The notes: generated by a model from the letters alone, not told the origin. Shown: positions 9,925-36,316, counted from the stretch's first letter. The stretch: 64,000 bases of DNA from an uncultured bacterium (GCA_963747905.1 CAVVHF010000018.1:1135-65134), one strand, 5' to 3'. Translations and numbers: made by a program.

Positions 9925-11409
9925 CTATCGCGGCGGCAGCGGGATGCCGTGAAAGGTCATCCATGCAGCCCCAAGCGAGGCCGGCAAAATAATCACGAGG
10001 AGGCAGACCGCGTAGGCCACTGCCAGCTTTACAAAACTTTCTTCCCGCGAATCCGTCTCCTTGCCTTTGACTGCCAGGCCAAGGCAGAAAAACGTCATCG
10101 CGAAGAACAGCAGGCGAAGCCCATTTGCTTCCAGCGCCACGACTTTTGCCGCGCGGAAGAATTGGGGCGAATGTAGCGAGAAAAACAACACCGTCCCGAA
10201 TGTGAGAACACACCCGAAAAGGAATTTGGGGAAGCGTACCCATATCTCGCCCACCCCGATCGTTTTGTCGGATGTTGCGTCAGATCGAAGTCGAAGTGCC
10301 CAGATGCCCGCGAGAAGTACAGCGAAGATCCCGATGAAGAGATCTATCTCCAACTTCATCGCGGTGGTGGTCATGAGAATCCACCCTGCCTGATAGCCCG
10401 CGCCCGTAACGGCAACAGCCTTTGCTTGGATCGCCGCCTCGGTTATCGTACCCGCTGCTACCGCCGCTCCGTCGGTCTTTACCGACATCGCCATGAAGCT
10501 TCCGGCGACCAGCGGCTCCTTGTACAAGAACTCACCGGCAACCATGGGAAGAACCACGACCTCGAGGACGGAGAAGCAAACCACGAGCGACGATACCATT
10601 GCAATGACCGCAGGACGGGCTTTGACCGCTGCGCCGATCGCGATCGCGGCAGCGACGCCGCAGATCGAGATCGCCGTCGCGAACACTGCGGCGTCCTCAG
10701 GACTCAAGTGAAAGACCTTGAGCATGACAACAAATACCAATATCCAATCGATCAAGTACACGACGACGACCGCAACGAATCCCCGAAACACGATGGTCCT
10801 TGCAAGATCCAGTTGCGTAGCGTTGTTCGTACCCGCGACCTGCACGGCAAGATAGGCGCCCAATAGGATGAGCCCGATCTTGATGTACAGATCCGCCTGA
10901 AAAGCCTGCAACGGCTTTTCTGTGGTCGCAGAAAAGAATCTGCGATTCCTGAAAGCGAGCCCGGCCAAAAGAAGCAAGACAAGCCCCGCCTCGCTGGTAA
11001 GCCCGAGAGACCATCCGATACCGAAGTCTTTCCGTCGATCGGCAGTGGCAGCGATGTAGCCGAAGCTGCCGATGAATAGCCCCGCCAAGCTGATCCAAAA
11101 AATCGCCGTGAACTCCGCGGCAAATCGCTTGAGGTCATATTTCAACAGCTTCGCGCCAGCCACCATGACGGCCAGCAAGAAGAGATACGTGCAGACCGCC
11201 GAGAGAAAACCCGGCATCCACACATAGCTCTTTGATATCGGAGCGAGCGACTTGGCCACATTTGTCCAAACGCTTACCCCAACTCCCCATCCAAGCGCAT
11301 CTCGGCCCGCGAGAGCGCCCACTAACGCCACGAAGAAAAGGAAAAGGCCCATTCCGAGAGCCATCCAATCCTCCTTAACGCCCGTCGCCAAACTTCTCCA
11401 TCTGTTCAT
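9925..11409 (-). CDS. polytopic inner-membrane protein of unknown function (at least 10 TM segments)
   Basis: 494-aa highly hydrophobic ORF; no catalytic motif recognised; the start may be M16 at 11364. Confidence 0.5.
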   Translation of the reverse strand: MNRWRSLATGVKEDWMALGMGLFLFFVALVGALAGRDALGWGVGVSVWTNVAKSLAPISKSYVWMPGFLSAVCTYLFLLAVMVAGAKLLKYDLKRFAAEFTAIFWISLAGLFIGSFGYIAATADRRKDFGIGWSLGLTSEAGLVLLLLAGLAFRNRRFFSATTEKPLQAFQADLYIKIGLILLGAYLAVQVAGTNNATQLDLARTIVFRGFVAVVVVYLIDWILVFVVMLKVFHLSPEDAAVFATAISICGVAAAIAIGAAVKARPAVIAMVSSLVVCFSVLEVVVLPMVAGEFLYKEPLVAGSFMAMSVKTDGAAVAAGTITEAAIQAKAVAVTGAGYQAGWILMTTTAMKLEIDLFIGIFAVLLAGIWALRLRSDATSDKTIGVGEIWVRFPKFLFGCVLTFGTVLFFSLHSPQFFRAAKVVALEANGLRLLFFAMTFFCLGLAVKGKETDSREESFVKLAVAYAVCLLVIILPASLGAAWMTFHGIPLPPR

Positions 11410-11921: not shown

Positions 11922-12296
11922 CTACGCGGCGGCTTCTGTCTCTGTAGTTACCTCATCAGCAGGCACTTCTGCAACGGCTACTTCTTTTGCCAGCGCGGCA
12001 ACTTTCACTTCCACCGGAGCCTTGGCAACAGCCTTCGGCATCTTGACCGCGATCTTAGCACCCGTGAGAGCGCCCTGTTTTATCAAAAGGTTATGCGCGG
12101 TGACGGTCGGCTGGGCGCCCATCTTGACCCAATGTAAAACGCGTTCCTTTTTGACGGTCGTCGCCTTGCTGCGCGGATCGTACGCGCCCAAATCCTCCAC
12201 CGGCGGAGCCGCCATCTTTGAACGTTTTTCTGCAACCACTATCCGATAGCTCGGCTGGTGCTTCTTTCCGATGCGTTGTAATTTAATGACCAACAT
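11922..12296 (-). CDS. rpsP: 30S ribosomal protein S16
   Basis: MLVIKLQRIGKKHQPSYRIVV matches the S16 N-terminus; a C-terminal Ala/Lys-rich extension follows; the start is chosen at the ATG preceded by a promoter. Confidence 0.9.
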   Translation of the reverse strand: MLVIKLQRIGKKHQPSYRIVVAEKRSKMAAPPVEDLGAYDPRSKATTVKKERVLHWVKMGAQPTVTAHNLLIKQGALTGAKIAVKMPKAVAKAPVEVKVAALAKEVAVAEVPADEVTTETEAAA

Positions 12297-12303
12297 GCAG
12301 TCC

Positions 12304-12331
12304 ATTATACTACGATGACGCCGAAGGTCAA
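12304..12331 (-). promoter_or_regulatory. sigma70-like promoter of rpsP (TTGACC-N16-TATAAT); the -10 ends 7 nt before the ATG, implying a leaderless or near-leaderless mRNA
   Basis: Hexamers read on the minus strand, with the ATG 7 nt downstream of the -10. Confidence 0.45.
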
Positions 12332-12372
12332 GCAAATGTACAGTTAACACCAGGAGGTAACTCTTGCGGCGG

Positions 12373-13280
12373 CAAGGGGTGACGGTGTTCACTGGAACTA
12401 TGAACAACCAACCAACACCGTACGGCAAAGAGCTCCGTCTCCGGTGGTACCGTCTTGTCGAACGGGATCATCGGATGGTCGGAGATGTTTGCCAAACTTT
12501 CGGTATTCCCAAGAAGACATATTACAAATGGTACGCGCGGGATCACGGTTACGGATCAAACGATCACCGGAGCCGGAAGCCCGACGCCAAGACCAAGCTC
12601 GTACCGGATCTCGTCATGTGGATTGTGGAACGGAAGAAGAAAACAAATTACGGGCCACTCAAGATGAAGCTCGAGATCGGGAGAGTCTTCGGACTTACGG
12701 TTTCAACGACGATCCTCTTTCGCCTCTATCGGCGCAAAGGGCTCATTCGAAAGCCCCAGCGAAAGCTCGGCTGGCATGCGCCGCTCAAGGAACCGCTCGT
12801 GATCAGAAAGCCAGGAGAAGGGGTGCAGCTTGATGTGAAATATGTGTATGAAGGAGGCACCCGCCATTACCAGTTCTCGGTCTTCGATCCATGGACGGAG
12901 CTGTATTACTTTCATGTGTTCAAGACGAGAGAAAGCAGGAATGCGGCGGCGGCGATCGAGGAAGCTGAACGATACTTCGGCTTTCCCATTATCTCCGTTC
13001 AGACCGACAACGGGAGCGAGTTCCGCGGCGACTTCCACGCATGGTGCGAAAAGCGCGGTCTTCCGCATTTCTTCATCCCCAAGAGTTCGCCCTGGTGGGA
13101 CGGCAAGGTGGAACGGGTCCATCGCACGATTGATGACGAGTATTATCAGAATCCGTTGCGGCCGTGGCACACGAGGGAGGAATGGCTCACTTACTACAAT
13201 ACCGAACGCATCCATCTCTCGATTGGAGGCATCACGCCGCGAGAAAAGGCCGATCAATATTTATCCACCGTCACCCCTTG
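12373..13280 (+). mobile_element. IS481-family insertion sequence (about 908 bp) bounded by perfect 15-bp terminal inverted repeats CAAGGGGTGACGGTG
   Basis: 15-bp perfect inverted repeats at 12373-12387 and 13266-13280 enclose a single DDE transposase ORF; no target-site duplication is seen. Confidence 0.6.
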
Positions 13281-13281
13281 A
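12400..13281 (+). CDS. IS481-family DDE transposase (N-terminal HTH plus rve integrase core)
   Basis: D(VQLDVKYV)...D(VQTDNGSEF)...E(GKVERVHRT) catalytic triad spacing; N-terminal HTH GIPKKTYYKWY; the architecture matches IS481 Tnp. Confidence 0.8.
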   Translation: MNNQPTPYGKELRLRWYRLVERDHRMVGDVCQTFGIPKKTYYKWYARDHGYGSNDHRSRKPDAKTKLVPDLVMWIVERKKKTNYGPLKMKLEIGRVFGLTVSTTILFRLYRRKGLIRKPQRKLGWHAPLKEPLVIRKPGEGVQLDVKYVYEGGTRHYQFSVFDPWTELYYFHVFKTRESRNAAAAIEEAERYFGFPIISVQTDNGSEFRGDFHAWCEKRGLPHFFIPKSSPWWDGKVERVHRTIDDEYYQNPLRPWHTREEWLTYYNTERIHLSIGGITPREKADQYLSTVTP

Positions 13282-13290
13282 TGTTCACAG

Positions 13291-13370
13291 CAAACAAAAA
13301 ATAGCCCCTCTCTTTTTTGACCGTTATGTCTGCGCACTAGGTCAAAAAAGAGAGGGGCTGTTTTTTGTTT
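13291..13370. terminator. bidirectional rho-independent terminator: perfect 20-bp stem (AGCCCCTCTCTTTTTTGACC) with a 17-nt loop, A-run before and T-run after
   Basis: Read directly from the sequence; serves the transposase on the plus strand and the 13369..14052 gene on the minus strand. Confidence 0.55.
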
Positions 13371-14052
13371 AATGCGTCTCCGTCCTATCTTTCAACTTGT
13401 TCAATAAGTGCGCTGCATAGTCCTTGCCGCCAAGACCGAAGGCCAAGCCGCCGGCGAGCGCGAACATCGCAATGAATCCAGTCACGATCGTCTGGATGAT
13501 CGTCGCCGCAATATTCAGCTGCGTGAGCGCGGTCAACAATCCGAACACGGCAATCGTCCAATACGTGACCGTGCCGAGGAACGGTCCCGAGTGCAGCTTC
13601 GCACTCATCACCGAGGCCGTCACGAGCCTGCGCAGGAAATGCGCGAGCACGAGCGCCGCGAGCATGATGAGCACCGCTGCGATCACGTTCGGCAGATAAT
13701 TCAGGATCGCCGTCAGAAATTCCGACAACGCATACAACTGCAAACTATCCGCGATTGCCACGAAGAACGCAACGATGATGAACCAATATACGAGCTTGCC
13801 GAAAAAGTATGCCGCGCGCAACTTGAGCCCGGCGCGCTCGAAGATCGGCTTCAACCCGATCTTCTCAAGGAATACATCAAGACGGATCCCTTCGAGGATC
13901 TTCTCCACAAGTGCGCCTAACCCCGCCGCCACAATCAAGCCGATGATCAGCACCACGAGTGCACCGACGATATTCGGCAAGTAATTGATAACTCCCCACC
14001 AAAGGTTTTGGAGTGAACCTACCACCACATCCGTCCAACTTTGTACAACCAT
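13369..14052 (-). CDS. membrane protein with a duplicated conserved-TM-helix repeat (MscS-associated TM_helix-like)
   Basis: Internal repeat YLPNIVGALVVLIIG / YLPNVIAAVLIMLAA; 6 predicted TM segments. Confidence 0.45.
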   Translation of the reverse strand: MVVQSWTDVVVGSLQNLWWGVINYLPNIVGALVVLIIGLIVAAGLGALVEKILEGIRLDVFLEKIGLKPIFERAGLKLRAAYFFGKLVYWFIIVAFFVAIADSLQLYALSEFLTAILNYLPNVIAAVLIMLAALVLAHFLRRLVTASVMSAKLHSGPFLGTVTYWTIAVFGLLTALTQLNIAATIIQTIVTGFIAMFALAGGLAFGLGGKDYAAHLLNKLKDRTETH

Positions 14053-14155
14053 AATAATTGATTAAATAACGATTAATATATAAGCTTTTTTTGCTTCTCC
14101 TTCTCTCGACCTTTTAGCTATTACTTTTATTATAGCAAAGTGGGGTGAGCACAAC

Positions 14156-14183
14156 TTGAAATTCCACGCCGTTTCTCTATAAT
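14156..14183 (+). promoter_or_regulatory. sigma70-like promoter (TTGAAA-N16-TATAAT) 13 nt upstream of tRNA-Ala
   Basis: Hexamers read directly from the sequence. Confidence 0.4.
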
Positions 14184-14196
14184 CAGTGAGCAAAGA

Positions 14197-14267
14197 GGGC
14201 CCATAGTAAAGTGGTATTACGCGGCATTCGCATTGCTGAGGCGGGAGTCCGATTCTCCCTGGGTCCA
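14197..14267 (+). tRNA. tRNA-Ala (anticodon CGC), atypical: 7-nt D-loop, 4-nt variable loop, T-loop TCCGATT, no encoded CCA
   Basis: Hand-folded cloverleaf: 7-bp acceptor with G3:U70 (the alanine identity pair), D-stem GTAA/TTAC, anticodon stem CGGCA/TGCTG, loop TTCGCAT, T-stem GGGAG/CTCCC, discriminator A. Confidence 0.5.
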
Positions 14268-14478
14268 CACCATCATTTTTTGCGTTTCGGCGCATTTCAA
14301 CACGGCCCATGGAAAATGGGTTTATGTACCGTCATTGTCCATAATACTGCTGGCATAATGCTTCGCTAGATGGCACCAATTGCTGCTTTAGGCAACATTT
14401 TGAGTGTTACCCGTACTTTGCCGGGATAGTGCCTCCGACCTTTGACTTCCTTTTATAGCAGAGTAGGATTCAAGACAA

Positions 14479-14988
14479 ATGAACGCAATTGCAATAAACG
14501 GGTCACTGACATTACTTGGTTGGCTCAATCTAAATCAGGACCTAGCACAATGGATGACCGTCGTGATTTTGATAATCACTGCTTATCTTGCATATCGGAT
14601 TGGAATAAAACAAAATTCAATAAACGAGTTGATTGAGAAAATTGAGGATTCAGCAGAAGTCTTTGCGTACGCAGCAAAGGGCAATAATCCCAATTTAACT
14701 ATCTGGGTTCTATTGGTAACAAACGTCGGGAAGGTGCAAATGTATATGAAGCGGTATACTGTCGAAACTCTTACCCCGATGGACGTCAACAACGCCCTGA
14801 TTCCTGCTGGACAACAGCAAAACGCATGGTATCAAATAGTATTACCGCCAATGGCTGTTAATACTATTTGTAATATTTCCCTCGAATTAGAAGATCACGT
14901 TGGGAGAATGTGGGAATCAAGCATTGATGCCACATTTTTTGGTAGTGGATGGACGACAAACGTTCATAAAATTGAGCAGGTTATATAA
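14479..14988 (+). CDS. hypothetical protein with one TM segment (first gene of the low-GC islet)
   Basis: 169-aa ORF in an AT-richer region; no motif recognised. Confidence 0.4.
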   Translation: MNAIAINGSLTLLGWLNLNQDLAQWMTVVILIITAYLAYRIGIKQNSINELIEKIEDSAEVFAYAAKGNNPNLTIWVLLVTNVGKVQMYMKRYTVETLTPMDVNNALIPAGQQQNAWYQIVLPPMAVNTICNISLELEDHVGRMWESSIDATFFGSGWTTNVHKIEQVI

Positions 14989-15071
14989 GTTAACTCGTCG
15001 CCGAAGGAGAACAGAATCAAGTTGAGAGTTTTTTCCTCAGCCTCGGAGTCGTTTTCAACGATCTAAAAGGC

Positions 15072-15713
15072 TTGATTCTTTTTGATACGATGCTAACGGA
15101 TGACTATGACCCATTGAAGCTCGGCGAGGTAACCGACCACTCTGGCAATTTTGCTGGCGTCCGGGTACAAATTCAAAAACTAATCGCAAGCACCGTAAAC
15201 GAATTCTTTCGACTACTCGACAGCCAATATGGCATCCTTGCCAATCCCGAATTTAACGAGTTATTGGTTCGTCTGGCAAAATCGGATAAGGAACTTTGGG
15301 AGGAACTTTTTGCTGCGACACATGGGGAACATCCAAGCGCAAATGCACTCTTGAAAACACTTTTGTATATCCGCAACAACGTTGCTTTTCACTATGACCA
15401 ATCAGGGAAGGCTCTGACAAAAGCCTACGTCAGCAAATTCTTCGGCAAAGCAGACGATGCAACCAGAGACTCCGCCTATTACTCAATAGGTAACGACATG
15501 GGAGAAACCAGATTCTATTTTTCTGATGCTGCGGTTGAGGAAGCTCTCTATTTGGGAGCAGAGAAAACTTTCAAGGAAAAAAGCGTTGGAGACCCTTCTT
15601 TCGAGAAATATCAAGCGGAAGTAAGAGAAACTGTCGGGAAGATGAACGGTGCTATTACATCGCTTATGAAAAAATATATACAGTCACGTCGGAGTCGTCG
15701 CTCGTCTGCTTAG
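15072..15713 (+). CDS. hypothetical soluble protein with an R-x5-H motif (RNNVAFH), a possible HEPN-like nuclease (speculative)
   Basis: 213-aa ORF in the low-GC islet; only the short motif supports the HEPN idea. Confidence 0.45.
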   Translation: MILFDTMLTDDYDPLKLGEVTDHSGNFAGVRVQIQKLIASTVNEFFRLLDSQYGILANPEFNELLVRLAKSDKELWEELFAATHGEHPSANALLKTLLYIRNNVAFHYDQSGKALTKAYVSKFFGKADDATRDSAYYSIGNDMGETRFYFSDAAVEEALYLGAEKTFKEKSVGDPSFEKYQAEVRETVGKMNGAITSLMKKYIQSRRSRRSSA

Positions 15714-16339
15714 TCTCCAATCAAACAAAAATCGAGTTGCTCTCTAGGAATACCGATGGAGAGGCCATATTTGATTGCCGGTTGCCACGACGCTTTATCG
15801 TCGTAGTTGAATCGGAATTGTTTGTCCTTAAAAAGTGCCACTACGTCTCGATCTCTCCAGAAGTGGGCATACCATCGGTTGTCCTTTATTTCTTTGGTAA
15901 TCTTCCTAAAATCCCCTTCATCCACCATGACGGTATGGAGATGCCATGGATCGTCGTCATCAGTCACTTCGGTTTTTAGCACCTGGAACGATTTCAGGAT
16001 TTCCGGATGGATGAGACTTTCCTCGACGATATTTCCCTTATACATTTTTTCTTTTGCGAAGAACAGGATGATGATCTCGATAAGTGTTGGGCATCCTAAG
16101 ACAAAGAGTGTAGCTATCGTCCAAGTATATGCGAGTATTAGCTGAACCAAATCCGGAAGATATGTTAGTGTCGCGAGAACGACACCGAGGATGGGAATGA
16201 CGAACACGCCGAGGCAGACCAACAACCATTCCCCTATCATTGTAAGAGATCGATCATTAAGCTTATTTTTTCTAAGCTGGTAGAGAATGTAAACGAACAA
16301 ATAGAGCCCGACAAGCACACTAAGTTGCACCGAGAGCAT
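15710..16339 (-). CDS. hypothetical membrane protein (N-terminal 4 TM segments plus an acidic C-terminal soluble domain)
   Basis: 209-aa ORF, convergent with the previous gene and overlapping it by 4 nt. Confidence 0.45.
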   Translation of the reverse strand: MLSVQLSVLVGLYLFVYILYQLRKNKLNDRSLTMIGEWLLVCLGVFVIPILGVVLATLTYLPDLVQLILAYTWTIATLFVLGCPTLIEIIILFFAKEKMYKGNIVEESLIHPEILKSFQVLKTEVTDDDDPWHLHTVMVDEGDFRKITKEIKDNRWYAHFWRDRDVVALFKDKQFRFNYDDKASWQPAIKYGLSIGIPREQLDFCLIGD

Positions 16340-16641
16340 GAGGGACTGCGCGTTAGTATGATTTGTGTGATGACGCCGAGGTTATAGAAAAGCACGGGGA
16401 AAAATAGCGAGATCGTGATTAGCAGCTGGAACCGACTCTCAATATCCTCCTTCATGCCCATAAGAATAGGACGTTTCGGAGATTTGTCCACCCAAATGGC
16501 TATTGCCGCCCACGACAACTCCGCCGATACCTTGTCAAACTGTCGACTTAGTTGTATGGTGCATTGGCTTACCGCTAATACTGGAAAGCCTTATCTCGTG
16601 CTAACCCCACGAATATGCACCTTCACAACAGGAGAAACACC

Positions 16642-17136
16642 ATGTCTGCTAACACCAGATCGTTCGAAACACGTCCAGCAAGGGCCTACAGCGAAACGCG
16701 GGCACGGCTCGCCATCCTCAGTGTAACGGCAGTCGAATTAATTCACAGCGGTGCCCGATCCCCAAACATGATCGAGGAACTGCTCTTTTCCCTGCAGCTC
16801 TTCAAGGAGGACCGGCTGAGCTCGGTTCATCCCATTGCACCAGTTGGCAAGGTGGAGCGGGATAGCTTACGGCGTGGATTGAAGGAGCAAATTGCCCAGG
16901 AAGGCGAGGATGTCGTCTATCAAGCATTTCTGAACGAGCTCCCACTGCGCATTCAGACAATCCTATGCGGGTTGGGGATCCGAACCTTTCATGAACTCCT
17001 TCGGAGCAACAGATTCAAAATCACTTCGGCACGAGGCTCGGGGCGTAAATGCGCCGAGATGCTTGAAGAGGTCATGGCACGATACGGCCTCAGCTTCACG
17101 TTGAACGAGGAACAGATCGCGGGGCTCTTCTCCTAA
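16642..17136 (+). CDS. standalone protein with a C-terminal RNA-polymerase alpha-subunit CTD-like helix-hairpin-helix domain
   Basis: LNELPLRIQTILCGLGIRTFHELLRSNRFKITSARGSGRKCAEMLEEVMARYGLSF aligns by eye to the RpoA alpha-CTD ([11 protein letters not shown]...[19 protein letters not shown]). Confidence 0.45.
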   Translation: MSANTRSFETRPARAYSETRARLAILSVTAVELIHSGARSPNMIEELLFSLQLFKEDRLSSVHPIAPVGKVERDSLRRGLKEQIAQEGEDVVYQAFLNELPLRIQTILCGLGIRTFHELLRSNRFKITSARGSGRKCAEMLEEVMARYGLSFTLNEEQIAGLFS

Positions 17137-17152
17137 GCGCCGCACAACAACA

Positions 17153-17185
17153 GACGGCCACTCTCATGGGTGGCCGCTTTATATT
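17153..17185 (+). terminator. rho-independent terminator (stem CGGCCAC/GTGGCCG followed by a U-rich tract)
   Basis: Read directly, 17 nt after the stop of the alpha-CTD-like gene. Confidence 0.5.
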
Positions 17186-17256
17186 TCTGTTGTCAAGAAC
17201 GACAACTCCGCCCGTCTTTTCAGGCGGGATCAAAGGCTTAGAATAAGCGCGGGGCG

Positions 17257-17475
17257 CTATTCTGACTTATTCTCTTTCTCTTTCCGGAGACTCTCCCTCG
17301 CAACCTCTCCGGCGAGGATGAGGTACTGCTTGAGATTCCGAACGGCTATTTCAAGCTCCTCTTCGCTGAAATTGGGAGAGAGTGTCCTAAGATATTCCCG
17401 AAGTTTTTCGTCCGGGTCTTTTTTGGCATCCATTGTATTTTGTGGTCCGACAAGTCCGCCGATATATACCACCAC
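17257..17475 (-). CDS. hypothetical small acidic protein
   Basis: 72-aa ORF with no motif; last ORF of the low-GC islet. Confidence 0.3.
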   Translation of the reverse strand: MVVYIGGLVGPQNTMDAKKDPDEKLREYLRTLSPNFSEEELEIAVRNLKQYLILAGEVARESLRKEKENKSE

Positions 17476-17519
17476 AAATCACACTCGGTTTTGTTGAGTG
17501 AAATTTTCTGAACCCATCT

Positions 17520-19769
17520 TTAGCTCTTTGCCGTCAATCCCTCCCCTTCCGGCTCCAGCTTGAGCGACACCACCTTCGAGCTCCCATCCTCGGCGAGGGT
17601 CACGCCATACAATATGTCGGCAGCTTCCATTGTGGCACGGTTATGAGTGACGACGATGAACTGCGTGTGTTTGGAGAAATCCTTGAGCATCGTGCCGAAG
17701 CGGCGTGTGTTGCGCTCGTCGAGTGGCGCATCGATCTCGTCGAGCACGAGGAACGGCGGCGGGCTGACGGACACCAATGCAAAGACTGCGGCGATACCAA
17801 CGAGCGATCGCTCGCCGCCGGAGAGCATGTCGAGTGATGTCGTCTTTTTACGCGGCAATTTTATCTCAATGTCCACGCCGCCGTTCTTTTCCTGATAGAG
17901 CTCATCCTCAGTTTGTTCGATCATTTCCTTCACGTCCCCACCTTCTTCTTCGTCTTCCTCATCCACAGCACGTTCCCCTTTCGGCTTCAATACTTTCAAC
18001 TTTGCCGATCCCCCGTCAAACATAAGCGCAAAGAATTTTGCAAACTCGTCGTTGATCTTGGAAAGCGATTTATCGAACTCGCTCTTGATCTTCTCGTTCA
18101 GTTCGCGCATGAGCGCGGTGAGGTCCGCGACGGCCTTGTTAAGGTCATCCGATTCTTTTACTAAAAATGCATGGCGCGTAGCAGTGTCCTCCGCCTCTTT
18201 CATCAACGCCTGATCCACTTCGCCGATGCTCGCGAGGTCGCCGCGCAGGCGGAATATCCGGTGCTCTATGTCAGCGCCCGTTGCGGCAACCGCATCTGCA
18301 ATCGATATGTCGCGAAATTCTTCCGCGCGGCGACCGGCCTGATCCACCTGACGCAGAACCTCGTCGCGGCGGAGGTCGAGCCGCTCCTTCTCAAGCAACA
18401 GTTCGCGATTGACTTTCTCCCACGCATCAAGCTTACCCTGTGTGGCCTGCACATCGGCGACGGCGCCTTTGAATGTTTTATAAAAATCTTCCTGACCGGA
18501 CTCCAATGCTTTTTCCTGCGCACGGAGCGATGCAATATTTTTTTCAAGATCGGACAGGTCTTTCGCCGCTTCTTCGAATTCCCGACGCAACGAGCTCGGC
18601 ATCGGCGCGCTCGTGGCCGCTTTGACAGAACGCGGTTCATCCTTTTCCTCAAGCGCGAAAGTTATCTCCTCGAGCACCGTCTCAATGGCAGCCTGCACCG
18701 CGAGTGGTTCCTCGTTCAATACCGACTCCAACTCCATTTTTATCTTTTCTAAAACATCGATAAGATTTTCCGCCGAGCGATCGCTCGCGTCGCGCGCGGG
18801 AGCGACCAAACGCTTCGCCATCTCGATCTGCGCCTCGATGCGACCGGCATCCTTTTGCAGCTTGCTCCGCGCATCCATGAGCGCGGCCATCTCCTCTTTT
18901 ATCTTGGCGAGGCGCTTACGCTCCTCCGGCTGGCTCTCTTCGATCGCCGCCTGGCGCGTTTCCGCCGCGCGCTTTTCTTTCTCAAAAACCTCACACTGTT
19001 TCGTATGCGCGGCGATACGCCCGTCCACCTGCTCACCCTTCGCACGTAGCTCGTGCAATTGCGAACCAAAAAAATGATTTTCGAGCGAACGCAGCTCTTC
19101 CTCTAACGCACCACGGCGTTCCCAGCGGCCCGTCTGGCGCTTGAGCGATCGCAAATGCGGCTCGATCTCTTCGATCAGCGCCGTCACTTTATCAAGATTT
19201 ATTTTACTGTTTTTTAACCTCCGCTCGGCATCGACTTTTTTGATCTGGAACTCCCGCAAACCGAGCATTTCCTCGATCATCCCGCGGCGTTCAAGCGGCG
19301 ACGAGCGGATAAAAAGATCGCTGTCCCCTTGCCCGATAACGACCAATCCACGCGAACCAAGCCGCGCCTTTGCAAAAAAATCGATAAGGTCGCGCAACAA
19401 TATTTCCGACTTGTTCAAATAATATTTGCTCTGCCCGTCACGCGTGATCTGGCGTGACACCACCACTTCCTCAAAATCCACCGGAAAGAACTTGTTCTTA
19501 TTCTCAAAATATAAACTTGCCTGCGCCATACCCACGCGCGCGCGCTTCTGCGTGCCGGCAAAGATCAGGTCTTCAACACGCGCGCCACGGAGGTTCTTTG
19601 CATCGCGCTCGCCCAACAGCCATCGCACGGCGTCCACGATATTCGACTTGCCGGAACCGTTCGGCCCGACGACCGCCACGATCCCCGCCGGAAATTCCAA
19701 CACCGTCTTTCCCGCGAAAGATTTGAAGCCGTTTAGTTCGAGCCGTTTGAGAAAATGGGATTCTGACAT
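17520..19769 (-). CDS. smc: SMC-family chromosome segregation ATPase, compact 749-aa form with no recognisable hinge domain
   Basis: N-terminal LKRLELNGFKSF plus Walker A GPNGSGKSN; C-terminal signature LSGGERSLVGIA plus Walker B LVLDEID; a roughly 500-aa all-helical middle; conserved rnc-smc synteny. Confidence 0.75.
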   Translation of the reverse strand: MSESHFLKRLELNGFKSFAGKTVLEFPAGIVAVVGPNGSGKSNIVDAVRWLLGERDAKNLRGARVEDLIFAGTQKRARVGMAQASLYFENKNKFFPVDFEEVVVSRQITRDGQSKYYLNKSEILLRDLIDFFAKARLGSRGLVVIGQGDSDLFIRSSPLERRGMIEEMLGLREFQIKKVDAERRLKNSKINLDKVTALIEEIEPHLRSLKRQTGRWERRGALEEELRSLENHFFGSQLHELRAKGEQVDGRIAAHTKQCEVFEKEKRAAETRQAAIEESQPEERKRLAKIKEEMAALMDARSKLQKDAGRIEAQIEMAKRLVAPARDASDRSAENLIDVLEKIKMELESVLNEEPLAVQAAIETVLEEITFALEEKDEPRSVKAATSAPMPSSLRREFEEAAKDLSDLEKNIASLRAQEKALESGQEDFYKTFKGAVADVQATQGKLDAWEKVNRELLLEKERLDLRRDEVLRQVDQAGRRAEEFRDISIADAVAATGADIEHRIFRLRGDLASIGEVDQALMKEAEDTATRHAFLVKESDDLNKAVADLTALMRELNEKIKSEFDKSLSKINDEFAKFFALMFDGGSAKLKVLKPKGERAVDEEDEEEGGDVKEMIEQTEDELYQEKNGGVDIEIKLPRKKTTSLDMLSGGERSLVGIAAVFALVSVSPPPFLVLDEIDAPLDERNTRRFGTMLKDFSKHTQFIVVTHNRATMEAADILYGVTLAEDGSSKVVSLKLEPEGEGLTAKS

Positions 19770-19790
19770 GATAAAATTCTGGCGAGGCGC

Positions 19791-20483
19791 CTATTTATTC
19801 TTCTTGAGCACGTTCTTTGCCGCCTCAAGCTCAGCTTCCTGCTTGGACGGCCCCAGCCCTTTTGCGATCAACTTGTCGCCATAATAGACGCCCATCATAA
19901 AAATGCGTTTGTGCGCCGGGCCCGTCTCTTCGATCATTTTGTATGTCGGCGTCAGCTTCAGCTTTTCCTGTACCATCTCTTGCAACTCACTCTTTGCGTC
20001 TTTGTACGTTTTATTCTTCAACACCTCGTCAAGATTGCTCATCACGAACTCGTGCACGAACGGACGCATTTTTTCGAATCCCTGGTCGAGATAGATCGCA
20101 CCAATCAACGCCTCCATTGCATTCGCCAGAATGACCTCACGCGCTCGGCCGATATCTTTTTTTTCGCCACGCGACATCAAAATAAATTTTTGCATGCCGA
20201 TCCGCTCGGCCACCTTCGCCAAAATCTGATAGTTCACGAGCGCCGCGCGGAACACCGTGAGCTGTCCTTCCGGCTCGTTCGGAAATTTCTTAAACAACTC
20301 CTCGGAAACAAGGAGTTCGAGCACGGCATCACCGAGATATTCCAACCGCTCATTTTGCGGCAAAGGCCAGCGCGGATATTCGTTGAGATATGAACGATGC
20401 GTCAGCGCCTCCGTCAGAAGGTCCTTGTTGGTGAACGTGATCCCGATATTTTTTTCCAGTTCGTCGGTTGATGATGAAGCCAT
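19791..20483 (-). CDS. rnc: ribonuclease III
   Basis: RNase III signature ERLEYLGDAVL and a C-terminal dsRBD. Confidence 0.9.
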   Translation of the reverse strand: MASSSTDELEKNIGITFTNKDLLTEALTHRSYLNEYPRWPLPQNERLEYLGDAVLELLVSEELFKKFPNEPEGQLTVFRAALVNYQILAKVAERIGMQKFILMSRGEKKDIGRAREVILANAMEALIGAIYLDQGFEKMRPFVHEFVMSNLDEVLKNKTYKDAKSELQEMVQEKLKLTPTYKMIEETGPAHKRIFMMGVYYGDKLIAKGLGPSKQEAELEAAKNVLKKNK

Positions 20484-22994: not shown

Positions 22995-23612
22995 TCAGGA
23001 CACCTTCCTCACTTCTGCCACCTTCAAGTGCGGGATCGCGCGATGCATAACCGGCGGTTTGTCTTCAAAGAATGTCTGCAATATCTGCAACGCATCGCCA
23101 TGGGAAACGAGCAGAATATTTTTGCCGGCGTAGCGCTCTCCCAAATCGTGAATGAGGGCGGCAACCCGAGCCGCGATCTCCGTCGTACTTTCCACATTCG
23201 CATCCCTATGGTCGGGATCGAGAACGTCCTTATCCCATACATTTTGATAATGGACGTCGCTTGTCCCCTCCCAATCGCCGAACCAACGCTCGCGTAACCG
23301 ATCGTCAAAAATAATTTCCACGGGCACCCCTAATACCTCCTTCGCAATCTCCGCCGTTCGCCGGCAACGCGAGAACGGAGAGGAAAAGATGATTGTGTCA
23401 TCTTTTAATAAACCCTGCGCCTTTGCCTCCCGCACCGAACGCCGAACCTGCTCCTCCCCATTCTTCGTAAGCGTATGTTCATCTTTTTCCCCTTCCTCTA
23501 AATGGCTTAAAATGACCCCACGGATATTCGGCATGCTTTCGCCGTGACGCAGGAGAAAATAATGATTTTTAAATATGGGCTTGATCGATTCCCGCGCACC
23601 CGCTTGCTTCAT
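22995..23612 (-). CDS. histidine phosphatase family protein (phosphoglycerate-mutase-like)
   Basis: LLRHGES catalytic RHG motif and a C-terminal SHGD region; the start is chosen at MKQAGARES. Confidence 0.7.
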   Translation of the reverse strand: MKQAGARESIKPIFKNHYFLLRHGESMPNIRGVILSHLEEGEKDEHTLTKNGEEQVRRSVREAKAQGLLKDDTIIFSSPFSRCRRTAEIAKEVLGVPVEIIFDDRLRERWFGDWEGTSDVHYQNVWDKDVLDPDHRDANVESTTEIAARVAALIHDLGERYAGKNILLVSHGDALQILQTFFEDKPPVMHRAIPHLKVAEVRKVS

Positions 23613-23614
23613 AT

Positions 23615-24046
23615 TTATATAATTTCCAATTTTTTGAACCAATATTCCCACGCCGGCTCCAACGTCAATCTTTTGATCTCTTCCTTCGAATACCATCCCG
23701 CCGATTTTGTTTCCCGCATACTGCGTGCGAGATCGCCGAAAATAGGGCAATAGAAAAGATACCAGTAGTGCGAGGTCGCTCCCTTACTACACCAATTCCA
23801 GTCAAGCTCTTCTTCTAAAAGCAACTTGGGATCATGCACATCAAAACCAATCTCCTCTTTGACCTCGCGCATGATGGCATGCCGCTCATCTTCACCCTCG
23901 TCAACGTGCCCCGCGACACCGGCGAACCCGAGCGGCGGCACGGCGCGTTCGATCAAAAGATATTTCCCATCCCGCTCAATGAGGGCGCCCACCGAAAAAT
24001 GCATCAGCTTCCCGTCTTTTGTTCTCCCTTCTTTCGGTGGCACCAT
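23615..24046 (-). CDS. NUDIX hydrolase
   Basis: Nudix box GHVDEGEDERHAIMREVKEEIGF. Confidence 0.8.
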   Translation of the reverse strand: MVPPKEGRTKDGKLMHFSVGALIERDGKYLLIERAVPPLGFAGVAGHVDEGEDERHAIMREVKEEIGFDVHDPKLLLEEELDWNWCSKGATSHYWYLFYCPIFGDLARSMRETKSAGWYSKEEIKRLTLEPAWEYWFKKLEII

Positions 24047-24053
24047 AGATCGA

Positions 24054-24500
24054 TCAAAAACGAATTTTGCTTATATCGCCATTTAAGAATATCGGCTGAA
24101 GACCGTAGATCTCTTCTTTAAAACCAAGGTCGTCAGAAATGGGATTCAGGATGTAGATCGGCTTGCCGTAATCGAAACCGATAGCTGCCTCGATGAGTGT
24201 GTTCCCGCCGATGTAACCGGGGACGCCCTTCTTCTCGTAATTGAGCACGAGCACTGCATCCCCGCTTTTTACTTTTCGCAGATGGTTTTTAATAAGCCAT
24301 GTCTTACGGGCATATTGCTTTGGATCGTCGAACCACGTCCTATAGGTACCCACGCGATAGTCACCGCTTTTTTTCATCTTCATCGCCGTGTACGGCAGCT
24401 TCACGGCATAGCCCATCGCAGTGAGCCGTTTCTCAACTTCCAGCGCCTGTTTAAAAAACGCAGCACTCGAGCAGATGGTGATTATCTTTTTCTTTTTCAT
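24054..24500 (-). CDS. nucleoside 2-deoxyribosyltransferase-like (SLOG superfamily) protein, paralogue 1
   Basis: N-terminal KIITICSS and the GGNTLIEAAIGFDYGKPIYILN motif (T..E.G.A...GKP), as in NDT/Rcl-like proteins. Confidence 0.55.
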   Translation of the reverse strand: MKKKKIITICSSAAFFKQALEVEKRLTAMGYAVKLPYTAMKMKKSGDYRVGTYRTWFDDPKQYARKTWLIKNHLRKVKSGDAVLVLNYEKKGVPGYIGGNTLIEAAIGFDYGKPIYILNPISDDLGFKEEIYGLQPIFLNGDISKIRF

Positions 24501-24501
24501 G

Positions 24502-24930
24502 TTATGCGATGGCAGATAAATTTCCTTTCAGACAAATAGGATCCATAGCCTTTATTTCATCAATATAGGGAACCTCGCTAGGAATATCGTTGAGCAGAAA
24601 TATCTTCTTTTTATTCACGTAGGCCATCCCCATTTCCATGAGACAGTTACCGCCAATATAATTTTTGATGCCTTTCTTCTCCAGGTTTACAATAAGAATC
24701 GCGTCGCTTTGGAGAATGTGGTTATAGTGCTGGCGGATATAATCATGCGCCCGCTTGAAATCAGCACTTTCGCCAGGCAACGCACCTTCGATGAACGCCA
24801 TTGTTTTGCCATTCACATGATCTTCATAATCCTGATGGATCCAGCCGTCGTAACCCAGATCGCAGAGCTGATTCTTGTAATCAACCATTTCCCTTACGAA
24901 GCTATTACTACCAAGAACGTAGACCTTCAT
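24502..24930 (-). CDS. nucleoside 2-deoxyribosyltransferase-like (SLOG superfamily) protein, paralogue 2
   Basis: KVYVLGSNSF and GGNCLMEMGMAYVNKKKIFLLN; clear paralogue of the adjacent gene. Confidence 0.55.
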   Translation of the reverse strand: MKVYVLGSNSFVREMVDYKNQLCDLGYDGWIHQDYEDHVNGKTMAFIEGALPGESADFKRAHDYIRQHYNHILQSDAILIVNLEKKGIKNYIGGNCLMEMGMAYVNKKKIFLLNDIPSEVPYIDEIKAMDPICLKGNLSAIA

Positions 24931-24951
24931 AAAAAATATTGTCGCACCAAT

Positions 24952-25027
24952 CCGACAGAAAAACAAACAGCCGTTCCGCTGAATTATTCTTATCACAAGG
25001 CGGAACGGCTGTTTGTTTTTCTGTCGG
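24952..25027. repeat. perfect 28-bp stem hairpin abutting the 3' end of tRNA-Lys; its loop contains GAATTATTCTTATCAC, the same 16-nt loop as the 63273..63318 hairpin
   Basis: CCGACAGAAAAACAAACAGCCGTTCCGC / GCGGAACGGCTGTTTGTTTTTCTGTCGG with a 20-nt loop, read directly. Confidence 0.5.
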
Positions 25028-25101
25028 TGCCCCCACCAGGATTTGAACCTGGGACCATCTCCTTAAAAGGGAGCTGCTCTACCAGACTGAGCTATAGGGG
25101 C
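25028..25101 (-). tRNA. tRNA-Lys (anticodon UUU); CCA not encoded
   Basis: Hand-folded cloverleaf: acceptor GCCCCTA/TGGGGGC, D-arm GCTCAGTCTGGTAGAGC, anticodon loop CTTTTAA, T-arm CCAGGTTCAAATCCTGG. Confidence 0.8.
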
Positions 25102-25112
25102 AATTCCTGCTA

Positions 25113-25141
25113 ATAGTAGTGAAAATTGTCGGATATTTCAA
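25113..25141 (-). promoter_or_regulatory. sigma70-like promoter of tRNA-Lys (TTGAAA-N17-TACTAT)
   Basis: Hexamers read on the minus strand, 14 nt upstream of the tRNA 5' end. Confidence 0.4.
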
Positions 25142-25153
25142 CCGACGGCATTA

Positions 25154-25537
25154 TTATTTGGATTTCGTCCGATATGCTTTTTTAATATCCAGATACGCCG
25201 CGTACGTCCCATGCTCCCCCTTTTGCTTTCTCATAAGATCGGCGGGATATTTTTTCTCGATACGCGCGAGTTTCGCGCGGATGATCTTTTCGGAATCAAG
25301 ATCGAGGAGCACCGCCATCTCGATCGCATAGAGAAACACATCAGCCAATTCTCCTTTCAACTTTTCCATTTTCTCCTTATTTTTCTTTGTATCTTTGATA
25401 TCCAAACTTTGCCATTGGAAAAGCTCCAGCAGTTCGGCGGCCTCGATGGATATGGATTTTGCGATGTCGGACGGACGCAGCACATGCCAATTCCTCGCGC
25501 GCAGGTATGCCTTGATGTCTTTCTCTAGTTTCTTCAT
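25154..25537 (-). CDS. MazG-like nucleotide pyrophosphohydrolase (single-domain, YpjD/dCTPase-like)
   Basis: EAAELLE...ELADVFLY motifs; 127 aa, all-alpha. Confidence 0.7.
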   Translation of the reverse strand: MKKLEKDIKAYLRARNWHVLRPSDIAKSISIEAAELLELFQWQSLDIKDTKKNKEKMEKLKGELADVFLYAIEMAVLLDLDSEKIIRAKLARIEKKYPADLMRKQKGEHGTYAAYLDIKKAYRTKSK

Positions 25538-25546
25538 ATTTGTTTA

Positions 25547-35614: not shown

Positions 35615-36316
35615 TTAGCGTTTCCTCTCTTTCTTTTCGAAATGCCAATGCCACGGTTCATACATAACGCCATCTTTGTTTTTTTTGGGATATGACAAAT
35701 AAAAGCCAAATTTGTTTGCATTGCGTATCAACCATTCAAATTCTATTGTCTTTCCAAATTTTAAAAGATCATCATCTTCTGGAATTCCTTCTTCTGTCAT
35801 AAAATCGATTGCTTGTCGTTGGGGGTTACTGTGCTCACTGTAACCCGGGAAAGCAGCCCATCTGACGGTTTTCCTAAAATCAAAGCCCGTATATTCAAAC
35901 AAAGAAAGGAACACTATAATTTGATAAGTTGGCGATCGGTAGCCAGACGCTACGAGTAACGACTTTCCAATATCCTTCTTTATCGCTGAATTCAGATGCC
36001 GATAAGCTTTATACACGGTACCGGGCAATAATTGCTCATTCATAGTTTTAGCTCTTCCTTTATGGAAAAACCTTTGCTTTCTTATCTTAACGATATCAGA
36101 CGGAACGTTTTGTATACCAAAAAATTTTCCTTTAAAACCGTAGCGGCGAGGATCGATCGACAAAAACTTTTTAATGGCCAACCTTTCATCTTTTTCAAGG
36201 AATTTATAAAGTTTGGAAAAGGTGATCAACCGAAGGTCTTTTATTGCATTAGGACGATCTATCTTTTTTAAAATTGTTTTAACGATTTCCGGATCAAGAA
36301 AGCCGCGCTGTTTCAT
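35615..36316 (-). CDS. VanY/M15-family D-alanyl-D-alanine carboxypeptidase-like peptidase (in a low-GC segment)
   Basis: SGYRSPTYQ, SEHSNPQRQAIDF (SxHxxGxAxD-type) and EPWHWH motifs. Confidence 0.7.
   Translation of the reverse strand: MKQRGFLDPEIVKTILKKIDRPNAIKDLRLITFSKLYKFLEKDERLAIKKFLSIDPRRYGFKGKFFGIQNVPSDIVKIRKQRFFHKGRAKTMNEQLLPGTVYKAYRHLNSAIKKDIGKSLLVASGYRSPTYQIIVFLSLFEYTGFDFRKTVRWAAFPGYSEHSNPQRQAIDFMTEEGIPEDDDLLKFGKTIEFEWLIRNANKFGFYLSYPKKNKDGVMYEPWHWHFEKKERKR

Follow-up and report, generated by a model that had tools for sequence, protein, structure and literature searches.

A probable insertion hot spot between tRNA-Ala(CGC) and smc, and its strain-specific mosaic of small genes, in a bacterium of the Candidate Phyla Radiation

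Content and composition of the smc/tRNA-Ala interval

The window considered here is a stretch of 64,000 nucleotides (nt) from an uncultured bacterium (GCA_963747905.1, CAVVHF010000018.1:1135-65134), numbered from its first letter. The subject is the islet located in this window between the 3' end of a tRNA-Ala(CGC) gene and the stop codon of smc, i.e., 3.25 kb of DNA. The islet carries five open reading frames (ORFs), named O1 to O5 below, which are indeed found (ORF list) where a first-pass annotation, made from the sequence alone, had placed them. That annotation had taken the islet for a horizontally acquired, possibly defence-related module. The features of the interval are listed below (aa, amino acids; GC3, GC content at third codon positions).

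14197-14268, + strand: tRNA-Ala, anticodon CGC (ARAGORN; Rfam tRNA model, 59.7 bits)
14269-14396, no strand: tRNA-proximal flank (blastn), kept at occupied sites and missing from empty ones
14436-14481, + strand: promoter-like site TTGACT-16-TAGGAT with leader and ATG, in front of O1 (promoter scan)
14479-14988, + strand: O1, intact, single-pass membrane protein of 169 aa; GC 40%, GC3 0.40
14994-15713, + strand: O2 remnant, 5'-truncated, of a gene of 252-258 aa with a HEPN-like fold; homology starting just after the in-frame TAA at 14991-14993
15072-15713, + strand: O2 ORF, 213 aa from a TTG
15372-15392, + strand: R-x5-H motif of O2 (IRNNVAFH; R101 and H107 of the 213-aa ORF)
15710-16339, − strand: O3, intact, 209 aa, four N-terminal membrane helices and an alpha/beta domain of ~110 aa
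16615-17136, + strand: O4, 173-aa ORF (164 aa in the public gene call, start 16642)
17155-17176, no strand: terminator-like GC-rich hairpin with T runs on both strands, between the convergent O4 and O5 (terminator scan)
17188-17264, + strand: non-coding element of 77 nt with three short hairpins, directly 3' of O5
17257-17475, − strand: O5, 72-aa ORF, small acidic helical protein
17520-19769, − strand: smc, conserved right-hand anchor of the site (ORF list)

The composition anomaly is genuine, exceeds chance and spans about 2.35 kb. The GC content is 43.9% over 14269-16614 vs. 52.5% for the window. GC falls right after the 3' end of tRNA-Ala, down to 41.6% in the lowest 1-kb window (~11 points under the window mean). 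The 2-kb window 14001-16000 is the strongest outlier of the 64 kb in the sliding-window analysis, with the most extreme values both for GC (43.1%, z = −4.0) and for tetranucleotide distance (z = +5.1). GC returns to the average from ~16600, where O4 begins (GC 0.544), and 16615-17519 has 52.2%. A drop of 10-15 points over 3 kb, ending at smc, had been announced in the first-pass annotation: the drop is real, but it amounts to 8.6 points on average (11 at most), is shorter and ends at O4. The GC3 values distinguish three composition classes within the islet: compared to 44 reference ORFs (0.636 +/- 0.07), they are 0.40 for O1, 0.44 for O2, 0.51 for O3, 0.52 (intermediate) for O5 and 0.638 (native) for O4.

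O1 and O2 are not simply neighbours. The 46 nt of 14436-14481 are 85% identical to positions 9958-10003 of locus L019, which end on the ATG of an O2 homologue (P0003). The coding sequence of O1 is located between this promoter and ATG of O2 on one side and O2 codon ~19 on the other, thus O1 disrupted O2. The first ~18 codons of the O2 family are gone from the window copy, which has no start codon before TTG 15072 or ATG 15090, and a start at either position would remove most of helix 1. Judging from its sequence, the window copy of O2 would be a decapitated, dead toxin-like gene.

Occupancy of the site among relatives and assembly of the islet

Orthologues of smc were found in 15 loci (L002-L016) of species-representative genomes, with identities of 93 to 44%; L017 was left apart, its smc match being fragmentary and only 30% identical. 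The relatives are labelled Minisyncoccia, Parcubacteria or Liptonbacteria, all of them bacteria of the Candidate Phyla Radiation (CPR), and the window genome is a CPR bacterium as well (Parcubacteria/Minisyncoccia). The rnhB-nusB-rnc-smc block and the MscTM-rpsP-ffh side are syntenic with the relatives. In all ten relatives scanned for tRNAs, tRNA-Ala(CGC) is located between smc and the MscTM gene, its copies being identical or near-identical. The two genes stand tail to tail, with a spacer of 11-115 nt at empty sites. The distances from the 3' end of the tRNA to the smc stop are as follows.

L012: 11 nt
L006: 62 nt
L005: 107 nt
L015: 115 nt
L003: 380 nt
L004: 500 nt
L002: 1.65 kb
window: 3.25 kb
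L010: 5.0 kb
L016: 5.1 kb

Four lineages (the window, L002, L010 and L016) have differing large inserts of about 1.6-5.1 kb. Their interiors are mutually unrelated except for single shuffled genes; the 377-bp insert of L003 corresponds to a gene mid-way in the L010 insert and to a fragment beside smc in L016. Most of the smc/tRNA-Ala intervals of relatives are AT-richer than their own genomes. Since the occupancy is variable and the cargo differs in each lineage, the smc/tRNA-Ala site is a hot spot. O1 to O4 are found at none of the smc loci of the 15 relatives; the islet is thus variably present and the same genes are not kept across relatives, which supports a horizontal acquisition at the hot spot. 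On this point the absence of O1-O4 from the relatives and the 2.35 kb of foreign composition support the first-pass annotation, which proposed that an island, possibly old or degraded, had been inserted 3' of a tRNA. O5 is the sole islet gene common to relatives (68% in L002 and 63% in L010, tblastn). The closest relative, L002 (smc 93%), has only 14269-14396 and 17189-17465 in common with the window insert, i.e., 14397-17188 is specific to the window with reference to L002.

These comparisons also bear on a purely native origin, in which ancestral genes, AT-rich for functional reasons (membrane proteins), would have been lost repeatedly with no horizontal transfer. Membrane proteins such as O1 and O3 tend to be AT-richer, the composition of O4 and O5 is near-native, and relatives also possess O5 and the 77-nt element. 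However, the closest relative is devoid of O1-O4, O2 is soluble and as AT-rich as O1, and the nearest O2 homologue (76%) is found in an unrelated mobile context (L018). Moreover, O1 interrupts O2, the tetranucleotide signature reaches z = 5, and in 90%-identity clusters O1, O2, O3 and O5 are sole members while the O4 cluster has three members. A native origin is the least probable of the readings considered here.

In L016, smc itself (L016:10001-12288) is a mosaic with reference to that of the window: the ends are 94-97% identical and the middle 66-78%, with several frame breaks. This could be due to recombination in the flank of the hot spot, to a coiled coil that evolves fast or to errors of a long-read assembly.

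Empty and occupied sites define the two ends of the inserts. The left junction lies a few nt at most from the 3' end of the tRNA. The homology with L002 is unbroken from the MscTM gene through the tRNA to 14396 (83.5% overall, 74% for the flank alone). It ends at 14356 for L010, at 14324 for L016 and at 14268-14281 for L003, L004, L006 and L012. At the other end, the 77-nt element has copies in L002 (12866-12943), L010 (5864-5940 and 7233-7309) and L016 (12510-12586), in addition to that of the window (17188-17264). The flank 14269-14396 and the 77-nt element are common to all four occupied sites and absent from the empty ones. The element directly follows, on their 3' side, genes that are transcribed in the same direction as smc, and most of the genes of the locus have no such element.

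No further copy of the 77-nt element was found with nhmmer in the 64 kb or in the other loci of L001-L032. A pattern scan of 241 million metagenomic records gave four contigs, all at the same locus and from L002-like or L010-like lineages; it is thus not a dispersed repeat. No copy was found in the viral contigs of IMG/VR, no covariation was detected by RNAalifold on the five copies, and Rfam found only the tRNA over 13900-17700.

A short motif, of which a 13-nt core is common to the 77-nt element, occurs at three places of the islet.

16513-16529, + strand: copy (a), CGACAACTCCGCC(GATA), at the low-GC/normal-GC boundary, before O4
17200-17216, + strand: copy (b), within the 77-nt element
17448-17464, + strand: copy (c), CGACAAGTCCGCCGATA, 5' of O5 and 56 nt from the smc stop

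The core CGACAA[C/G]TCCGCC has three copies in the 64 kb, where 0.11 would be expected; the islet contains all three, which have the same orientation and are located at segment boundaries. Among relatives it is found essentially at the hot spot alone, with one match elsewhere (L015, one mismatch). The repeated core may mark junctions or operator sites. A further reading is that of a cassette-exchange locus, in which a recombinase encoded elsewhere would use the 13-17-nt core and the 77-nt element as cassette-delimiting recombination sites. The motif at segment boundaries, the confinement of the 77-nt element to the locus and the cassettes shuffled between genomes are compatible with such an exchange, which is nevertheless very unlikely. 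If true, CPR bacteria would have an integron-like system of gene capture with no sequence relationship to classical integrons.

As stated by the first-pass annotation, neither an integrase nor an attachment (att) repeat is visible. The five islet ORFs are devoid of recombinase domains and of any other significant match in Pfam, and thus none is an integrase. In a Smith-Waterman scan of 12000-20000 the 3' half of the tRNA occurs only once, no direct or inverted repeats were found to bracket the islet or its low-GC part, and no att repeat brackets the insert at any occupied site. The ten cargo ORFs of the occupied sites L002, L010 and L016 have no Pfam match, so that no integrase was detected there either.

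A transposase of the DDE (rve) type is encoded at 12364-13281, 900 bp beyond the other side of the tRNA. It was considered as the integrase of the island and rejected: it belongs to a separate, strain-specific insertion sequence (IS) of ~1 kb (12333-13368), located outside the islet between rpsP and the MscTM gene, with a native GC, absent from all relatives and single-copy in the window. A hairpin (13294-13370) follows this IS.

In three relatives, partial copies of tRNA-Ala flank the intact gene (L005:12325-12560, L016:17290-17529, L015:12258-12415). Nucleotides 1-18 are found behind a conserved promoter ~69 nt upstream, and nucleotides 25/26-72 are located 30 nt downstream. In L005 the intact tRNA-Ala is also bracketed by an 18-nt inverted repeat (GGTTTTGTTGCGGCTTAC / GTAAGCCGCAACAAAACC). 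The partial copies bracket a mini-insertion of ~170 nt and not cargo; this insertion looks as if it had come with an entire tRNA-Ala and interrupted the gene that was there. The tRNA itself is thus a recombination target in this lineage. These scars have no direct bearing on the arrival of the cargo of the window.

The ends and the scars are best weighed together with the possibility that the islet is what is left of one integrative element (a prophage, or an integrative and conjugative or mobilizable element) at tRNA-Ala, the interior varying by decay and not by repeated gain. This possibility is favoured by the start of the insert a few nt from the tRNA, by the conservation of both ends in four lineages, by the tRNA-fragment scars of L005, L015 and L016, and by the location of O2 homologues in a prophage-like region and beside a serine recombinase. 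On the contrary, the scanned cargo ORFs contain no integrase and no att repeat brackets any insert. Apart from shuffled single genes, the four inserts have nothing in common in their interiors, and the islet holds three composition classes. In addition, relatives of O2 and O3, as well as the 77-nt element, are absent from the IMG/VR contigs. A single decayed element is a possible though rather unlikely origin.

The reading preferred here, with a probability of roughly 0.78, is that smc/tRNA-Ala(CGC) is a hot spot for insertion and replacement among closely related genomes of Parcubacteria (Minisyncoccia), and that the window holds a strain-specific mosaic of at least four separately acquired pieces, not one system. 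Variable occupancy, foreign composition, mosaic junctions, the truncation of O2 and the lack of known defence or mobility genes are its observed basis. Starting from the tRNA, a first piece would be the short flank shared by occupied sites. The second would be of low GC, O1 having landed between the promoter/ATG and codon ~19 of O2, which decapitated it. The third would be O3, a membrane protein with an undescribed cytoplasmic domain, and the fourth O4, with its native GC. The fifth would comprise O5, shared with two relatives, and the 77-nt hairpin element, as a somewhat older resident. Entry would have occurred by site-specific integration at the tRNA 3' end, followed by reshuffling through recombination between related genomes, and by deletions.

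Several points weigh against this reading. The window contains neither an integrase nor an att repeat, and no integrase was detected among the ten cargo ORFs of relatives; the proposed entry is therefore unproven. A single ancient island with repeated losses would equally give shared ends. O4 has a native composition and could be an older resident. The reading frame of O2 has no internal stops or frameshifts across 240 codons, thus either O2 was truncated recently or a protein shortened at its N-terminus is still produced. O1, O3, O4 and O5 may, after all, have a joint function.

The HEPN-like gene, its neighbours and the defence question

O2 has 29 homologues (word-indexed search), nearly all of 251-262 aa. 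The closest to the window copy is that of L018, with 74.5% nucleotide identity over 14993-15707. The R-x5-H motif reported by the first-pass annotation is real. R143 and H149 of the full-length homologue P0002 are invariant in 26 of 26 full-length homologues (alignment A2), and the window copy keeps both residues (alignment A1, which includes it). Among the 26 sequences, E86 is also invariant and N145 invariant or nearly so; E86 is located in helix 64-93 of the AlphaFold model. This model of P0002 has a mean predicted local distance difference test (pLDDT) of 83.5. In it, R143 closes helix 134-144 and H149 precedes helix 150-166, with a low pLDDT at that place (57-58). The core of the predicted fold is a four-helix up-and-down bundle. 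HEPN proteins are characterized by an Rx4-6H motif at the end of helix 3 or the start of the loop to helix 4, by an acidic residue conserved in helix 2 near this motif, and by a metal-independent RNase activity. The place described for the motif (PMC3710099), at the end of helix 3, is also its place in the O2 family. Besides the HEPN protein compared at the end of this text, the match list contains the further HEPN proteins 7ae2, 5yep, 8xdj, 1wwp, 1ylm and Las1.

None of the curated HEPN profiles reaches its threshold: Pfam HEPN_RiboL-PSP is found in 3 of 26 members (best E 0.006), and the member scanned singly has 16.9 bits vs. a cut-off of 28.4. A sequence-profile search of PDB with the O2 family gave no HEPN match and Foldseek of the family model vs. 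PDB found nothing. Owing to the lack of a profile above threshold and to the Foldseek result, the HEPN assignment is graded as probable only. Based on the predicted fold and the conserved residues, the O2 family is probably a new HEPN family of ~255 aa, with an invariant R-x5-H and a predicted RNase-like function. The earlier description of O2 as HEPN-like thus holds at the level of the family, but the window copy is devoid of ~18 N-terminal codons and of a start upstream of helix 1. A NifU match of O2 (E 0.004, PDB profile search) was discarded: it looks like chance and falls on a helical linker sequence.

The O2 homologues are found in mobile or variable surroundings. That of L018 has a large serine recombinase and a DnaB-like helicase as neighbours. 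Another (L020/L021) is in a prophage-like region (faint terminase match, ParB-methylase, LexA-like repressor), and that of L023 is inside a restriction-modification island. O2-family genes are 4-8 GC points lower than their own loci elsewhere. Across six other loci the homologues have no conserved neighbour, and O1, O3 or O4 are beside them in none of the six.

Defence functions were searched with the models of PADLOC-DB 2.0. The five islet proteins have no significant match in PADLOC, Pfam, NCBIfam or PHROGs; the only PADLOC match is a PglW fragment for O4 (E 0.013). For 26 O2-family members, the best PADLOC value is E=0.0036, for a single member and a candidate model (PDC-S06). No relatives of the O2 and O3 families were found in the viral contigs of IMG/VR. 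The idea of a defence-related module, advanced by the first-pass annotation, is not upheld: the islet proteins have no family-database match, O2 is truncated and the genes do not co-occur with O2 homologues elsewhere.

A functional module of the abortive-infection type, in which O1 and O3 would sense or execute, O2 would cleave RNA and O4 would regulate transcription, may still be weighed. Variable hot spots are places where defence genes tend to gather, and this site is one. R-x5-H and a Glu of helix 2 are invariant in the O2 family, the fold of which is HEPN-like, and the frame of O2 is otherwise intact. One O2 homologue is located among restriction-modification genes, and one homologue of the O3 domain near an OLD-like ATPase. 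However, O2 of the window lacks its N-terminal codons and any start before helix 1, and O1 is inserted into O2 and not alongside it. The genes are not together elsewhere, where O2 homologues are without conserved neighbour. Neither the islet proteins nor the 26 family members are matched by PADLOC, and O4 and O5 differ in composition and history. Such a module is improbable.

O1 belongs to a family of small membrane-anchored proteins that is defined here. After the transmembrane helix, the family has an IGxxQNxIN motif and then a domain of ~100 aa with alternating hydrophobic positions. A full HMMER search gave 50 cluster representatives at E<=1e-3, mostly of 140-190 aa. No relative was found in Pfam, nor in PDB by sequence-profile search.

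O3 has nine homologues, which cover its C-terminal half alone. This undescribed domain of ~110 aa is characterized by the invariants EESL, WH, WYAHFW and GLSxGIP. The AlphaFold2 pLDDT is >90 for residues 100-190, and the domain has no Pfam match and no sequence relative in PDB. Elsewhere it is found as a stand-alone protein of ~115 aa, fused to a glyoxalase domain (one case), or with another membrane anchor near the OLD-like ATPase (one case). Upstream of O3, and partly over it in a different frame, an ORF of 93 aa (16237-16518, − strand) codes for a further hydrophobic helix (LLITISLFFPVLFYNLGVITQIIL), which may be a former fifth N-terminal membrane helix of O3, split off by a frameshift. O1 and O3 are probably accessory cargo with an envelope-related function.

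O4 has a single homologue (P0041, 58%), located in a different variable region. Its residues ~100-165 align to the C-terminal domain of the alpha subunit of RNA polymerase (alpha-CTD) in three independent searches, all of them sub-threshold. The match with NCBIfam RNA polymerase alpha has E 0.023 and 13.7 bits against a cut-off of 277, and those with PDB alpha-CTD chains have E 0.28-1. The alpha-CTD-like character formerly given to O4 is thus reduced to a weak resemblance of its C-terminal ~60 aa.

O5 has no family match in Pfam or in the PDB profile search. Relatives keep a Met just before its PDEKLRE motif. Judging from this sequence, the true start is likely ATG 17433, which would give 58 aa.

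Two other places of the window have been noted. A second low-GC stretch, 23600-25540 (44.5-48%), is found around tRNA-Lys(UUU) (25026-25101). It holds two ORFs with no Pfam match (24054-24500 and 24502-24996), as well as genes of the NUDIX and MazG-like types. Since tRNA-Lys is 2.6-5.4 kb away from smc among relatives, this stretch may be another variable spot. The gene with the lowest GC of the window (35615-36316, GC 37%, GC3 0.37) encodes a VanY-type D-Ala-D-Ala carboxypeptidase beside recR, and it is possibly another foreign gene.

Significance and comparison with known systems

The islet is an ordinary case of a strain-variable genomic islet and leaves current understanding unchanged. Three by-products are of modest use. 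The first is a documented hot spot with empty and occupied alleles in ultra-small CPR genomes, in which the biology of mobile elements is poorly charted. The second is an unannotated HEPN-like family of ~255 aa, found in CPR prophage-like and restriction-modification contexts, and the third comprises the O3 domain and the O1 family. The practical value is that the region is kept from being annotated as a defence system.

Among HEPN proteins, the closest to the O2 family is the «integron cassette» family (PDB 3JRT, Vpc_cass2; Anantharaman et al. 2013, PMC3710099), with a sequence identity of 11%. As differences, the O2 family has ~255 aa, with extra helices and a conserved N-terminal segment, and the window copy is truncated. 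As with HEPN-MNT pairs and HEPN proteins of abortive infection (AbiD/F, AbiU2, RloC/PrrC type), a predicted HEPN gene is found in variable, prophage and restriction-modification surroundings. The differences are that neither the window nor six homologue loci have an MNT (minimal nucleotidyltransferase, NTP_transf_2) or another conserved partner next to O2 or its homologues, that no ABC-ATPase fusion is present and that the PADLOC models give no match.

The locus resembles integron arrays by its short, promoter-poor genes in a row, the hairpin element 3' of some of them and the cassettes shuffled among relatives. It differs from integrons since the 77-nt element consists of three short hairpins and not of a long imperfect palindrome, has no RYYYAAC / GTTRRRY cores, and accompanies some genes only; moreover, the genes of the locus have both orientations. 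An integron integrase was not identified in the ORFs adjoining the islet, the search for intI not extending to the full 64 kb.

The best comparison is with tRNA-adjacent islets and hot spots, the concept of chromosomal integration hot spots flanked by core genes having reportedly been set out by Oliveira, Touchon and Rocha in 2017. The common traits are a tRNA 3' end between core genes, a variable occupancy, an atypical composition, small orphan genes, a mosaic turnover and no mobility gene left. The differences are the tiny CPR genome and the size of the inserts, merely 0.4-5 kb. Unlike in a simple hot spot, both ends, i.e., the 128-nt flank and the 77-nt element, are common to the occupied sites, which is unusual.

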